Source of the DNA: Acidaminococcales bacterium | GTDB taxonomy: Bacteria; Bacillota; Negativicutes; Acidaminococcales; JAISLQ01 | Assembly: GCA_031552765.1 (NCBI GenBank) | Contig: JAVBME010000005.1 | Coordinates: 9,328 to 73,327 of the forward strand | DNA: 64,000 nt | Reading direction: 5' to 3' | Shown here: positions 13,976-22,300 of the stretch, piece after piece | Layout of the letters: every line of letters starts with the position of its first letter | How positions within the stretch are numbered: position 1 is the first letter of the stretch | The notes under the pieces: model-generated | Databases searched by the model: none | Seen by the model: only the letters and a program-made list of their open reading frames with translations | What the model was told of the DNA's origin: nothing | Made by a program: the position numbers and the translations under genes

Positions 13976-14830
13976 TCAGCGCAGGCCGGTATTTTTGACC
14001 ATGAAAGTGGCAAGGTGAGGTTTATTCATAGTGTATAAATGTATGCCGCGCACACCGTTGGCGGCAAGGTCGTCTATTTGCCGGCAGGCGTATTCAAGGC
14101 CCGCTTCTTGCATAGCCGCGGGCTGGTGGTAGTATTTGTCGATAAGGCGCAAAAGCTTTGGCGGCAGACTGGCGCCGCACAGGCGGCAAATATGGCGGAC
14201 CTGGCTGCCGGAAAATACCGGCATTATTCCCGCGCATACCGGGATTTCGAGGCCGGCTCCGGCCAGGCGCTCCAGGAAATAGTAAAAAAAGTCATTGTCA
14301 AAAAATATCTGTGTGATGAGAAAGTCTGTGCCGGCTGTGATTTTCTCTTTTAAATATATGAGCTCCTGCCTGCGGTCGGGACATTCAGGATGCCCCTCCG
14401 GATAGGCGGCGCCGCCAACGCAAAAATCACCGGCCGCTTTTATTTGTAAAACAAGCTCTTTTGCGTGTGTCTGGCGTACAGGCAAGGAGCTGTCTTGCGG
14501 CGGGTCGCCTCGCAAGGCCAGAATGTTTTGTATGCCGCGCTCTTTCATTTCGGCTAAAATATCGGCAATCTCCTCCGGGGTATTGACTATGGAAGTAAGA
14601 TGAGCGAGAGATGCGATACATCCGTCGTTTTTTATATGCTCAGCTAGTTCCAGCGTGTGCCCGCGGTTAGAACCGGCAGCGCCGTAAGTGACGCTAATAA
14701 AATCCGGCTGTAAAGATTTAAGCTGCTGTACGGTATGCAAAATAGGCTCAAAAGGGGACTCTGGTTTAGGCGGAAAAATTTCGAAAGATACTACGGGGTT
14801 TTTCGCTGTAAAAAGTTTGCTTATTTTCAT
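13976..14830 (-). CDS. metF: 5,10-methylenetetrahydrofolate reductase
   Basis: VSFEIFPPK...FISVTYGAAGS...ALRGDPP...TQIFFD motifs. Confidence 0.9.
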   Translation of the reverse strand: MKISKLFTAKNPVVSFEIFPPKPESPFEPILHTVQQLKSLQPDFISVTYGAAGSNRGHTLELAEHIKNDGCIASLAHLTSIVNTPEEIADILAEMKERGIQNILALRGDPPQDSSLPVRQTHAKELVLQIKAAGDFCVGGAAYPEGHPECPDRRQELIYLKEKITAGTDFLITQIFFDNDFFYYFLERLAGAGLEIPVCAGIMPVFSGSQVRHICRLCGASLPPKLLRLIDKYYHQPAAMQEAGLEYACRQIDDLAANGVRGIHLYTMNKPHLATFMVKNTGLR

Positions 14831-14861: not shown

Positions 14862-14998
14862 AAAAGCCTGCTTTGGAGGCAGGTTTTTGGTCATGCCTCT
14901 CATCTTCCAGGTAAAACCTGTAGGATTTGGCACCGGTACCAGGCGGGTCCGGTTGCCGGGCGTCATTGGGCCTATCCCTCCGCCGCTCTTGATAAGAG
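14862..14998 (-). promoter_or_regulatory. SAM-I (S-box) riboswitch with terminator
   Basis: Minus strand reads CTCTTATCAAGAGCGGCGGAGGGATAGGCCCAATGACGCCCGGCAACC...GGTGCCAAATCCTACAGG...GGAAGATGAGAGG. This is followed by the antiterminator pair GAGGCA/TGCCTC and the hairpin CCTGC-N7-GCAGG plus CT6. Confidence 0.92.
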
Positions 14999-15144: not shown

Positions 15145-15630
15145 ATGGGAAAAAATGTAATCATATATACTGATGGTTCTTGCCTGTCTAATCCCGGGCC
15201 AGGCGGCTATGCCGCCATATTGCGTTATGGCGGCGTTACGCGTGAGCTATGGGGCGGCGAGCCGGAAACTACCAACAACCGTATGGAACTCTTGGCAGCG
15301 ATAAAAGCGCTCGAACAGTTGAGCCGGCCTTGCGCGGTGGCGCTGTTTACCGACAGCCAATATGTAATGAAAGGTTTTACGGAAAAGTGGCTGCTCAACT
15401 GGAAAAAGAAAAACTGGAAAACAGCAGGCAACAAACCGGTGAAAAACCAGGAGTTGTGGCAAAAGCTCGATGAGCTGGTCTCTTTTCACACTGTGGAGTG
15501 GCAATATGTCAGGGGCCATCAGGGGCAGGCGGAAAATGAGCGTTGTGACCAACTGGCTAGGGCTGCGGCGGAAAAGATCCAACAGGGCGCGGCGGCTTTC
15601 TTTGACTGCGGGGAGTATCAAGGGAAATGA
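15145..15630 (+). CDS. rnhA: Ribonuclease HI
   Basis: [20 protein letters not shown]...[16 protein letters not shown]...TDSQYV...[14 protein letters not shown]. Confidence 0.92.
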
Positions 15631-15678
15631 AATATGCCAGGGAAAGTTTTGCATCCCGTTATTTGACTATAAATCTTC

Positions 15679-15707
15679 TTGACAAAAAAAAATCTGGCAA
15701 TTATGAT
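15679..15707 (+). promoter_or_regulatory. Candidate sigma-A promoter of the trpB leader
   Basis: TTGACA (15679-15684), a 17-nt spacer, then TATGAT (15702-15707). Confidence 0.55.
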
Positions 15708-15734
15708 ATAAATAATATAATAAACAAAAGCTAG

Positions 15735-16070
15735 GAACGGGAATAGTAGTTTTGCCAGCTTCTTTTAAGCGAACCGGCGGCCAGCATAGCTGGAGGTGCG
15801 ATGGCCGGTAAGAAGAGCAAAGTGAATGGCCCCGGGAGCTGTCCGCCGAAAGCTTTGCCAGTAGGCCGGAACGGATGCCGCCGTTAACAGGCTAGGATAT
15901 CGGCAGTTTTGCTTGTATCTGAAGAAAGGGAATGTATTTTCCAAATAAGGGTGGCAACACGAATCACTTCGTCCCTGGGGGCTAAGTGGTTTTTTATTTG
16001 GTAAAAACATTCCAAACAAGGGTGGTACCACGAACTGTTTCGTCCCTGGCGGAGCAGTTCTTTTATTTTT
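15735..16070 (+). promoter_or_regulatory. T-box leader (Trp specifier UGG) with two tandem antiterminator/terminator modules
   Basis: Stem I at about 15755-15841, with AGCGAA at 15768 and GGUGCGA at 15795. GAA-UGG-C has UGG at 15827-15829; AGUA is at 15860. T-box 1 spans 15944-15976 and ends in a U-run at 15990-15995. T-box 2 spans 16014-16047, with a hairpin at 16032-16060 and a U-run to 16070. Confidence 0.85.
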
Positions 16071-16189
16071 GCGGGAGGCGGTAGAATGTTCGATAAAGCG
16101 GTCTATATCAAGCTCAGCCGCTGGCTTGTACGTTGGCCAAGTAAAAAGAGAAATGATTAATTTAATAAATAGAGAAAGAGGGATGAATA

Positions 16190-17377
16190 ATGAAACAGGT
16201 ACCTGACAAACAAGGATTTTTTGGCCAATATGGCGGCCAGTATGTCCCGGAGGTAATGTTGCCTATCTTAGAGAATATGGCGGTAGAATATGAAAAAATA
16301 AAGGACGATCCCGCTTTTAAGACGGAATTGGCGGATTTGCTGCAAAGTTACGTTGGCAGGCCCTCCCTTTTATATGAAGCAAAACGCTACAGCAAGGCAA
16401 TAGGCGGGCCCAAAGTATACCTAAAAAGAGAAGACCTCAACCATACCGGTTCGCATAAAATAGACAATTGCCTCGGACAGGCGCTTTTAGCCAGGCATAT
16501 GGGCAAGACTCATGTGATCGCGGAAACCGGCGCCGGTCAGCACGGCGTAGCGTCGGCCACGGTGGCGGCTTTATTTGGTATGAAGTGTACGATTTTTATG
16601 GGCAAGGAAGATGTGGAACGCCAGGCGCTCAATGTTTACCGTATGAAGATGCTGGGCGCGGAAGTGGTATCTGTAACAGACGGTACCGGTACTTTGAAAG
16701 AGGCCGTGGACGCTGCGATAGATTACTGGGTCGCCCATAAAGATGATATTTTTTATATCATCGGCTCGGCGGTCGGCCCACACCCCTATCCGACTATGGT
16801 GCGCGATTTTCAAAAGTGCATAGGTGAAGAAGCGCGCGCTCAGGTGCTGGAAAAAGAAGGGCGCTTGCCTGATGCCATTTTTGCCTGCATCGGCGGCGGC
16901 AGTAATGCTATAGGATTGTTCAACGCATTTTTAAATGATAAAGAAGTAGCTATTTATGGCGCTGAAGCCGGCGGTCGCGGCATCGATACCAAAGATCACG
17001 CCGCGACTTTGACTCTTGGGCAGGTAGGCGTGCTGCATGGTTCTAAAAGCTATATCCTGCAAGAGCCTAACGGCGATATTATGCCTGTTTACTCCATATC
17101 GGCCGGTCTTGATTACCCGGGCATCGGGCCGCAGCATTCTTATCTCAAAGATAGCGGGCGGGTAAATTACCAGCCGGTGACCGACGGTGAGGCGATAGAA
17201 TCTTTTAAACTCCTGTGCCATACGGAAGGGATAGTTCCGGCTTTGGAAAGCTCCCATGCTTTGGCGCTGTTTGAAAAGGTAGCAAAACAGTTCAAAAAAG
17301 AAGATATCGTTATCATTAACCTGTCTGGCCGTGGTGACAAGGATGTGCAGCAACTGGCCGAAATGCAGGGTTTGTAA
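16190..17377 (+). CDS. trpB: Tryptophan synthase beta chain (stand-alone)
   Basis: [10 protein letters not shown]...[14 protein letters not shown]...[10 protein letters not shown]...GGGSNAIG...[10 protein letters not shown] is AGAAAGAGGGA. Confidence 0.93.
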
Positions 17378-18615: not shown

Positions 18616-18705
18616 GGAGAGATGTCCGAGTGGTTGAAGGAGCACGCCTGGAAAGCGTGTGTAGTTGAAAGGCTACCGAGGGTTCGAATCCCTCTCTCTC
18701 CGCCA
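18616..18705 (+). tRNA. tRNA-Ser (anticodon GGA), CCA encoded
   Basis: Acceptor GGAGAGA/TCTCTCC, anticodon arm CACGC-CUGGAAA-GCGUG, a long variable arm, T arm GAGGG-TTCGAAT-CCCTC, then G-CCA. Confidence 0.95.
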
Positions 18706-18728
18706 TATAAAAATTAGTCGCCGAAGGC

Positions 18729-18888
18729 GCGGCTTTTGTTTTTTCTGTCGGGCCGCGGCGCTGGGTCTTGCGCAATGTGGACTCATGAACCCTGTCAGGT
18801 CCGGAAGGAAGCAGCAGTAAGTGATCATTCGCATGTGCCGCGAGGGCGCCTGGACTGCCGCGTCCCGACAGGCAAAACAAAGCCGCCA
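18729..18888 (+). ncRNA. ffs: SRP RNA (short form; helix 5/8 only), boundaries +/-15 nt
   Basis: Conserved core CCCUGUCAGGUCCGGAAGGAAGCAGC (18790-18815). The long closing helix pairs GCGGCUUUUGUUUUUUCUGUCGGGCCGCGGCG with CGCCGCGUCCCGACAGGCAAAACAAAGCCGC. Its position just upstream of dnaX matches Bacillus. Confidence 0.82.
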
Positions 18889-18901
18889 GAGGTATATTGC
18901 G

Positions 18902-22067: not shown

Positions 22068-22300
22068 AACAGATGCTTAGGTCCGTGGTTGAAAGTCGAT
22101 GCCAGTCGCAGGCGAAGCGATCCACGTAAGCAGCCAAAAATTAAGCTGTGAGCATAGTGCGGCCTAGAGGTAAGTCCTGCCGGCGAAAGCCGAGAGGGGA
22201 AGTAGTGGGGGGCTAAAGCCTAGTAGCGAAACTTCCGGCAGGCGAGTGTGGGGGAAAAGACCAGGTCGGCTAAGCAAATGTTTAATATAGGTGTACGGGG
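22068..22300 (+). ncRNA. Unclassified structured ~235-nt 5' leader / ncRNA candidate
   Basis: Hairpin at 22075-22131. A junction domain at 22176-22242 comprises CCUGC/GCAGG, a CGGC-GAAA-GCCG tetraloop hairpin at 22181-22192, and GGAAGU/ACUUCC. There are four G4-6 tracts and no terminator before ATG 22309. Confidence 0.45.

Follow-up and report, generated by a model that had tools for sequence, protein, structure and literature searches.

A tryptophan T-box leader with a single Stem I and two antiterminator/terminator modules upstream of trpB in an Acidaminococcales bacterium

Introduction

Fully tandem T-boxes are frequent in the trp genes of many Bacillota. 'Partially double T-boxes' were reportedly described by Vitreschak et al. 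in 2008 (RNA 14:717). The review by Zhang (2020, WIREs RNA, PMC7583486) mentions 'partially tandem T-boxes' with unknown modes of action. One sensor combined with two expression platforms is absent from a published tandem riboswitch classification and from a contiguous-riboswitch survey, and phrase searches of the literature for T-boxes with two antiterminators or two terminators found nothing relevant. The leader described here lies upstream of trpB, the gene for the tryptophan synthase beta chain, in a stretch of 64,000 nt of contig JAVBME010000005.1 (GCA_031552765.1) from an Acidaminococcales bacterium. This whole stretch is called the window, and coordinates refer to it unless another locus is named.

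According to the same review (PMC7583486), Stem III and the antiterminator together make up the discriminator of a T-box. It describes Stem III, with the conserved flanks 5'-RRRxG...AA-3', as indispensable and the antiterminator by itself as showing no appreciable tRNA binding, and gives the U of the A2 closing pair as a steric sensor. The discriminator is also said in this review to tolerate large insertions, such as stem Sa in staphylococcal glyS T-boxes and the Stem III and A2 insertions of translational T-boxes.

Results

One decoding domain followed by two modules

A search with the T-box covariance model (Rfam RF00230) gave one full-length match, at 15724-15979 on the forward strand, with 114.9 bits (gathering score 93), an E value of 1e-24 and coverage of model positions 1-219. 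Its UGG specifier agrees with the amino acid of the regulated gene downstream. A permissive scan of 15600-16250 returned a second match at 15983-16047 (30.5 bits, E=6e-5), which spans model positions 158-216 only, corresponding to Stem III and the antiterminator. The covariance model thus recovered one Stem I and two modules, as in the initial annotation, and all elements that the latter had listed are present at their positions in the sequence, the RF00230 alignment and the folds (Table 1).

In both modules, an antiterminator with a 7-nt UGGN bulge is mutually exclusive with an intrinsic terminator. The canonical fold of antiterminator 1 (−5.7 kcal/mol) is the minimum free energy (MFE) structure, and that of antiterminator 2 (−5.6 kcal/mol) lies within 0.1 of the MFE. 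The hairpin of terminator 1 (−13.4 kcal/mol) is followed by U6AU3 to 15999 and that of terminator 2 (−16.6 kcal/mol) by U4AU5 to 16070. Aligned without gaps, the two 61-nt modules are identical at 46 of 61 positions, a value reached by none of 2000 shuffles, and their paralogous terminators have diverged in a compensatory way (UCACU/AGUGG versus ACUGU/GCAGU). Folding of the entire leader at once gave an uninformative MFE structure. The bulge variant UGGCAAC, with AAC for the usual ACC, was observed in two unrelated Trp leaders, at 15952-58 of the window and in module 2 of L106.

An ordinary full tandem T-box with an overlooked second Stem I was considered, since full tandem Trp T-boxes are common in Bacillota; on this last point the literature documents well what the initial annotation had stated. 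The distance from the U-tract of terminator 1 to helix A1 of antiterminator 2 is 19 nt (16000-16018), so a second Stem I or specifier cannot fit there, as had been argued from a spacing below 20 nt. Across the 34 related leaders described below, the start of the first U-tract and the GGG of module 2 are 23-41 nt apart. No second match to Stem I was called by Rfam in 15600-16250, even at E values up to 10. The sequence already refutes an overlooked Stem I, and we give this explanation next to no chance.

No tRNA-Trp gene was found by ARAGORN within the 64-kb window or in any relative locus retrieved. Bacterial tRNA-Trp has G73 as its discriminator base. If this holds for the present tRNA, the C of the module 1 bulge would form a Watson-Crick pair with it and the U of the module 2 bulge a wobble. 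The chemistry given in the initial annotation, with UGGC pairing to G73-CCA and UGGU pairing to A73 or wobbling with G73, is correct.

Conservation in the closest relative and recurrence of the layout

In the closest relative (L001, GCA_031551525.1), trpB is 81% identical to that of the window and the locus is syntenic, with metF, rnhA, the leader, trpB, usp and dnaX. The L001 leader consists of one full T-box (112.4 bits) and then the same second module. The two leaders share about 90% identity in the T-box region and 83% mean column identity over the full alignment. From the window to L001, the helix under the specifier loop changes from CGGG/CCCG to UGGG/CCCA, which is compensatory. Terminator 2 changes from GAACUG...CAGUUC to GAACUA...UAGUUC, with three U-G pairs becoming U-A, and forms a perfect hairpin of −15.8 kcal/mol in L001. 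The promoter-like site and terminator 1 are kept as well. The two leaders thus retain both modules with pairing-preserving changes, which is not the behaviour of a decaying copy.

Among the loci compared, the trp leader of the window was common to L001 and L002 only. No T-box was found at trpB homologues of 76% identity (L003, L124-126), which sit in another context, and two metagenome scans with lineage-specific patterns gave no match.

The layout as such is more widespread. One genome per species, for 185,579 species, was scanned with the pattern GGGTGGNANCNCG-N{40,70}-GGGTGGNANCNCG, and gave at least 120 matches. Filtering of the 120 listed on the 3' strand CGNCCC left at least 34 non-redundant leaders, the window and L001 included; class-wide counts refer to these 34 leaders among the matches listed, unless stated otherwise. 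Three further leaders with variant 3' strands (L088, L091, L099) bring the number to at least 37. About two thirds of the 120 listed matches were chance or unrelated repeats in GC-rich genomes (e.g. L063, L093, L107, L114) and were discarded. Only positions that the pattern leaves unconstrained, the flanks and the terminators are unbiased by the scan.

The carriers among the matches listed are mostly Negativicutes (Dialister, Megasphaera, Veillonellaceae, Phascolarctobacterium, Acidaminococcales, Sporomusa, Pelosinus, Propionispora and Anaerospora). Others in the same list are Clostridium ragsdalei, Lachnospiraceae, Chloroflexota, metagenome-assembled genomes (MAGs) of Clostridia and Bacillota, and a Sumerlaeota MAG. 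A hairpin with U-tract follows module 1 in all 34 leaders and module 2 in 33 of them. Every Rfam-scanned leader that reaches far enough upstream has a single Stem I. Most leaders scored 108-133 bits, and the serC, aspS, Leu and Trp-c types 72-92 bits (E 1e-13 to 1e-19).

Specifier and gene agree throughout several families. Phe (UUC) leaders occur with SSF symporters and solute-binding proteins, Tyr (UAC) leaders with binding proteins, Ser (UCC) leaders with a class-V aminotransferase gene, read as serC, Asp (GAC) leaders with a class-II D/K/N synthetase, and Trp (UGG) leaders with trpD, trpE and trpB. A Leu specifier (CUC) is also represented, and the class holds the leader of an ileS-type class-I synthetase. 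The initial annotation had missed that the architecture is a recurrent class and that partially tandem T-boxes are already in the literature.

It had, on the other hand, allowed for a decaying duplication. A recent duplication of the 3' end of the T-box, decaying or neutral and without function, would fit modules that are direct repeats with 75% identity. It is disfavoured by the compensatory changes with which the layout is kept where trpB itself is only 81% identical, and by its recurrence in many gene families, at least 37 leaders of Negativicutes, Clostridia, Chloroflexota and a Sumerlaeota MAG sharing it with intact terminators. The flanks, moreover, have evolved toward inverted and not direct similarity, as set out below. 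We regard a functionless duplication as very improbable.

Two variations were seen within the class. In module 1 of eight Phe/Tyr leaders (L024, L036, L055, L105, L110, L006, L079, L096), the 3' strand of terminator 1 complements the T-box sequence (GGGUGGUACC...GGUACCACCC). Terminator 1 of these leaders sequesters the tRNA-binding bulge and encloses A2, whereas textbook T-boxes use the antiterminator 3' strand instead. In L112 (95-260; a Chloroflexia MAG, ileS-type gene), of which the leader is truncated at the contig end, module 1 has a normal terminator with U-tract. In its module 2, the hairpin lacks a U-tract, and CCUCU...AAAGGAGG comes next, adjoining the start codon. To judge from this arrangement, the first checkpoint of L112 looks transcriptional and the second translational, by sequestration of the Shine-Dalgarno (SD) sequence.

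A predicted long-range helix around module 1

Folding of the window RNA by RNAfold from 15925 to 15977 gave Stem III-1 (15928-42) with antiterminator 1, and from 15925 to 16000 Stem III-1 with terminator 1. Extension by 16001-16014 brings the MFE down from −20.8 kcal/mol to −33.9 kcal/mol (15925-16014) through a new pairing of 15929-49 with 15993-16013, in which GGAAUG/CAUUCC and CCAAAUAA/UUAUUUGG take part. In that fold, the whole of module 1 is enclosed by one long hairpin, and L001 folds in the same way. The long-range helix of the window counts 18 enclosing pairs. In these folds, the 5' arm of Stem III has two alternative partners, a local one at 15938-42 (Stem III-1) and a distant one at 15996-16013 (Stem III-2). 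The segment before antiterminator 2 appears to supply the 3' arm of a long-range Stem III, the 5' arm being common to this helix and module 1, a feature that the initial annotation did not contain.

The helix recurs in the class. The 26-nt stretches that precede the two antiterminators are joined by at least 8 pairs in 33 of the 34 leaders, with a mean of 15.2 enclosing pairs versus 4.8 for the flanks of module 2 and 6.2 for a shuffled 3' flank. The 3' flank is closer to the reverse complement of the 5' flank than to a direct copy of it in 23 leaders, the opposite being true in three; for the window, the scores are 12 (reverse complement) versus 6 (direct copy). The own hairpin of the 3' flank has a mean energy of −1.3 kcal/mol versus −4.5 kcal/mol for the 5' flank.

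MAFFT with RNAalifold on seven orthologous leaders put the helix arms out of register and gave no useful prediction. Duplex energies of cognate versus swapped flanks, with a permutation test, were used in its place. Cognate flanks formed the more stable duplexes overall (−12.7 versus −8.2 kcal/mol), within the Sporomusa-like transporter family (−11.0 versus −6.1), among the Trp leaders (−15.5 versus −8.7) and among unrelated leaders (−14.9 versus −7.5). For 23 representatives, the cognate mean was −12.56 versus −6.90±0.57 after permutation; none of 20000 permutations was as good (z = −10). Swapping of the flanks matters little in two families with conserved arms (serC and the GAUUCGAGAU type), as expected. 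By eye, helix sequences are wholly different between orthologues (GGAUUUUAAGA, AAUCUUAG, AGAUCUUA, AGGAUCAUGCGUCC) and the downstream arm tracks each of them.

For L039 and L025, the optimal full-length Rfam alignment itself takes the long-range helix as Stem III (129 and 128 bits). Module 1 becomes an insertion of 60-67 nt in these alignments, and antiterminator 2 is aligned as the antiterminator.

Module 2 as a putative discriminator

In module 1, the discriminator motif consists of GAAAG, Stem III-1 (15928-42), AA, the linker AUAA and GGG. The corresponding motif of module 2 consists of the same GAAAG (15924-28), the helix 15929-45/15996-16013, AA (16014-15), ACAA and GGG. The U-tract of terminator 1 sits where antiterminator 2 would need a separate purine string; the RRRxG-Stem III-AA motif is supplied by the long-range helix in the window and in most leaders. 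Linker lengths are similar in both modules across the class. Read from the sequence, the duplicated unit appears to comprise the Stem III 3' arm, the linker, the antiterminator and the terminator, with the purine string and the 5' arm shared.

The module 2 bulge is UGGUACC in 25 leaders, UGGCACC in eight and UGGCAAC in one, with C as the sixth base in 33 of 34. Module 2 retains the U of the A2 closing pair in 31 of 34 leaders and module 1 in 25 of 34. By these measures, module 2 is more canonical than module 1. The tRNAs for Trp, Ser and Asp are of the G73 type and those for Phe, Tyr, Leu and Ile of the A73 type. The N of the module 2 bulge (N2) is C in 8 of 13 leaders of the G73 type versus 1 of 21 of the A73 type (Fisher p=5e-4, a test that ignores phylogeny). 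Mixed C/U bulge pairs, as in the window, are frequent among leaders of the G73 type.

These features bear on what module 2 does. It could be a fail-safe terminator, a largely tRNA-independent attenuator that lowers leak, in which antiterminator 2 folds or fails to fold by itself and the bulge is a remnant of the duplication. Two serial terminators cut basal expression whatever the sensor, antiterminator 2 of the window is no stabler than its competing fold (−5.6 versus −5.7 kcal/mol), an N2 of U only wobbles with G73, and N2 of L039 mismatches the expected discriminator. The full signature of module 2 is nevertheless present at positions that the search did not force, namely the sixth base, the A2 closing-pair U, the AA linker and a Stem III equivalent with purine string. 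N2 also tracks the class of the cognate tRNA, and a constitutive terminator would cap induced expression with no gain in sensing. We consider a plain fail-safe terminator unlikely.

Alternatively, antiterminator 2 could bind free uncharged tRNA, cognate or not, without Stem I and act as an independent, general sensor. A UGGU bulge can pair with any A73 or G73 NCCA end, and there is no second specifier that would impose identity. According to the review (PMC7583486), though, discriminator binding needs Stem III, and the complex as a whole has to be anchored by Stem I and Stem II. A free-standing sensor would have no need of the long-range helix, which would place antiterminator 2 canonically with respect to the only Stem I, and N2 varies with the class of the cognate tRNA. 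Such a sensor seems quite improbable to us.

Proposed two-stage mechanism

We consider it rather probable that the leader is a transcriptional T-box responding to tRNA-Trp, in which one decoding domain (Stem I, Stem II and IIA/B) serves two nested discriminator/terminator modules that act successively. In the first, canonical stage, Stem III-1 and antiterminator 1 would capture the uncharged 3' end of the tRNA-Trp held by Stem I, and RNA polymerase would pass terminator 1. After this read-through, terminator 1 would form anyway and 15993-16013 would pair with the 5' arm of Stem III at 15929-49. This long-range pairing would zip module 1 into one hairpin and free the 3' end of the tRNA. The long hairpin would then act as Stem III for antiterminator 2, by which the full discriminator would be restored where it had been with respect to Stem I. 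A second inspection of the acceptor end would follow, either on the tRNA that is still anchored or on one that replaces it, with a U-G wobble to G73. Only then would terminator 2 be bypassed and the small open reading frame (ORF) and trpB be transcribed. The expected effect would be a multiplied, and thereby much lower, basal read-through without a second specifier domain. The folding snapshots agree with the proposed order of events. We infer that module 2 depends on tRNA, that the same tRNA molecule is handed over and that regulation benefits from it.

Two sequential checkpoints over one specifier domain had been one of the two explanations offered by the initial annotation; L001, the at least 37 leaders, the module 2 bulge and the N2 trend support it. 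More generally, partially tandem T-boxes might be nested two-stage discriminators with a shared purine string and Stem III 5' arm, in which the same Stem-I-anchored tRNA is proof-read twice. One sensor would then serve two sequential expression platforms, in an arrangement widespread in Negativicutes and present in Clostridia and Chloroflexota. This extension is put forward tentatively, as possible rather than probable.

Several points weigh against the two-stage mechanism. The particular trp leader is known from one other species only. The scan demanded the T-box 13-mer in both modules, so that conservation of the 13-mer is partly an effect of the collection. The G73 and A73 classes in the N2 test, which takes no account of phylogeny, come from general knowledge and not from these genomes. 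The Phe (UUC) leader of Sporomusa aerivorans (L039) has an N2 of C that mismatches the expected A73, the sole exception among 21. Finally, Stem III is a hairpin, so a duplicated 3' arm automatically complements the shared 5' arm, and part of the long-range pairing could be inherited and not selected. The covariation within families and the loss of the local hairpin argue against inherited pairing, without excluding it.

A small ORF downstream of terminator 2

Terminator 2 is followed by a small ORF with two Trp codons (Table 1). L001 has a homologous ORF at about 2187-2285, MHDKMVMVKISRWMKRWRF..., with a common core K-[LI]-S-R-W-x-x-R-W and synonymous third-position differences, as judged from two sequences only. 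The two species differ in the distance between the ORF stop and the next start. The Trp T-box of the at (rtpA) operon of B. subtilis precedes a Trp-rich leader peptide, rtpLP, that has three Trp codons. The window resembles it in the succession of a Trp T-box and a short ORF with Trp codons (16086-16160), and differs from it in that the two Trp codons are non-adjacent and the spacing to the next gene is not conserved. The small ORF might add a third, translational layer in this lineage. A structured element between terminator 2 and trpB was considered as a candidate and rejected (z = +1.15 versus shuffles).

The trpB gene of the window starts 29 nt after the small ORF. In L001, a gene for a DUF4126 membrane protein (2368-2961) lies between the leader with its small ORF and trpB, without counterpart at 16161-16189 of the window. 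No T-box was found ahead of close DUF4126 homologues elsewhere (L127-129).

Features of the locus

Table 1. Coordinates of the leader elements and the genes they precede in the window.
Feature	Coordinates	Strand	Basis
Predicted sigma-70-type promoter: TTGACA, 17-nt spacer, TATGAT	15679..15707	+	Consensus scan 11/12; kept in L001
Complete class-I T-box: Stem I, Stem II, IIA/B, Stem III, antiterminator 1	15724..15979	+	Rfam RF00230
Stem I, sole copy: kink-turn, specifier loop, AGCGA bulge, GGUGCGA distal loop	15730..15839	+	Covariance-model alignment
Specifier codon UGG (Trp), within GAA-UGG-C 15824-15830	15827..15829	+	Covariance-model alignment position
Stem II (AGUA 15860-63) and Stem IIA/B region with F-box CCGUUA 15881-86	15841..15886	+	Covariance-model alignment
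Purine string GAAAG 15924-28 and shared Stem III 5' arm 15929-45	15924..15945	+	RNAfold, RNAduplex
Antiterminator 1: A1 AGGG/CCCU, bulge UGGCAAC 15952-58, A2 ACGAA/UUCGU	15948..15976	+	Covariance-model alignment, fold
Terminator 1: hairpin 15961-15992 (core 15964-15989), U-tract UUUUUUAUUU 15990-15999	15961..15999	+	RNAfold; kept in L001
Predicted Stem III-2 3' arm, pairing with 15929-15949 and enclosing module 1; then AA 16014-15 and linker ACAA	15993..16013	+	RNAfold, covariation
Antiterminator 2: A1 AGGG/CCCU, bulge UGGUACC 16023-29, A2 ACGAA/UUCGU	16019..16047	+	Partial Rfam match, fold
Terminator 2: 13-bp hairpin 16032-16060, U-tract 16061-16070	16032..16070	+	Terminator scan, fold
Small ORF, 24 codons, MFDKAVYIKLSRWLVRWPSKKRND, two Trp codons (16122, 16134), SD GGAGG 7 nt upstream	16086..16160	+	Sequence reading
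trpB, tryptophan synthase beta chain, regulated gene	16190..17377	+	NCBIfam TIGR00263, 614 bits

The closest homologues of the trpB product are from Negativicutes (Acidaminococcales, Sporomusa, Anaeromusa), with 68-81% identity, and no trpA was found adjacent to trpB in the ORF list of the window. Downstream of trpB follow, in this order, a universal-stress-protein gene, tRNA-Ser, the signal recognition particle (SRP) RNA, dnaX, ybaB and recR. The leader is preceded by rnhA and, on the opposite strand, by metF behind an S-adenosylmethionine (SAM) riboswitch. This riboswitch is a SAM-I match at 14897-14998 on the reverse strand (87 bits), upstream of the methylenetetrahydrofolate reductase gene at 13976-14830 (reverse strand), and L001 has the same arrangement.

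A strong match to the raiA RNA motif (RF03072, 187 bits) was found at 22072-22278 on the forward strand, downstream of recR. The Rfam large-SRP match (18690-18893) has a poorly aligned 5' part and overlaps about 15 nt of the 3' end of tRNA-Ser (18616-18705), and the SRP RNA of L001 was called as the small type (100 nt). In the window, the SRP RNA probably begins further downstream than called by Rfam.

Discussion

The comparison yields a concrete, falsifiable structural hypothesis, made up of a shared Stem III arm, a long-range helix and the re-inspection of an anchored tRNA. Leaders of this kind are carried by cultivable organisms, among them Sporomusa aerivorans, Anaerospora hongkongensis, Dialister succinatiphilus and Megasphaera. 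If the hypothesis is true, this RNA lowers leak multiplicatively without duplicating a large ligand-recognition domain, which would be of use for the study of co-transcriptional RNA folding and for the design of tight synthetic switches. For annotation, it explains why covariance-model matches on these leaders stop at the first antiterminator in some cases and at the second in others. The long-range Stem III is perhaps a new insight, although an earlier description is possible.

With the canonical class-I T-box (RF00230; B. subtilis tyrS, glyQS), the window leader shares Stem I with specifier and platform, Stem II, IIA/B with the F-box, and Stem III. It also shares the antiterminator with a 7-nt UGGN bulge, the competing intrinsic terminator and the position upstream of an amino-acid gene. 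It differs in having a second antiterminator and terminator without a second decoding domain, and in a Stem III 5' arm that has two 3' partners. Stem Sa of the staphylococcal glyS T-boxes and the insertions of translational T-boxes, in contrast, do not function as an antiterminator/terminator in their own right.

Fully tandem T-boxes (trp operons; thrS/thrZ with two or three copies) likewise place two serial termination checkpoints in one leader, and tighter control is presumably the shared result. There, however, every unit is complete, including a Stem I and a specifier, and requires a separate tRNA, whereas the window has a single Stem I with specifier and does not contain two complete units. 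Its second unit, moreover, is nested around the first and does not simply come after it. The window leader combines one Stem I with two modules that leave no space between them for another. With part of a T-box duplicated in this way, it most probably belongs to the class of the partially tandem T-boxes.

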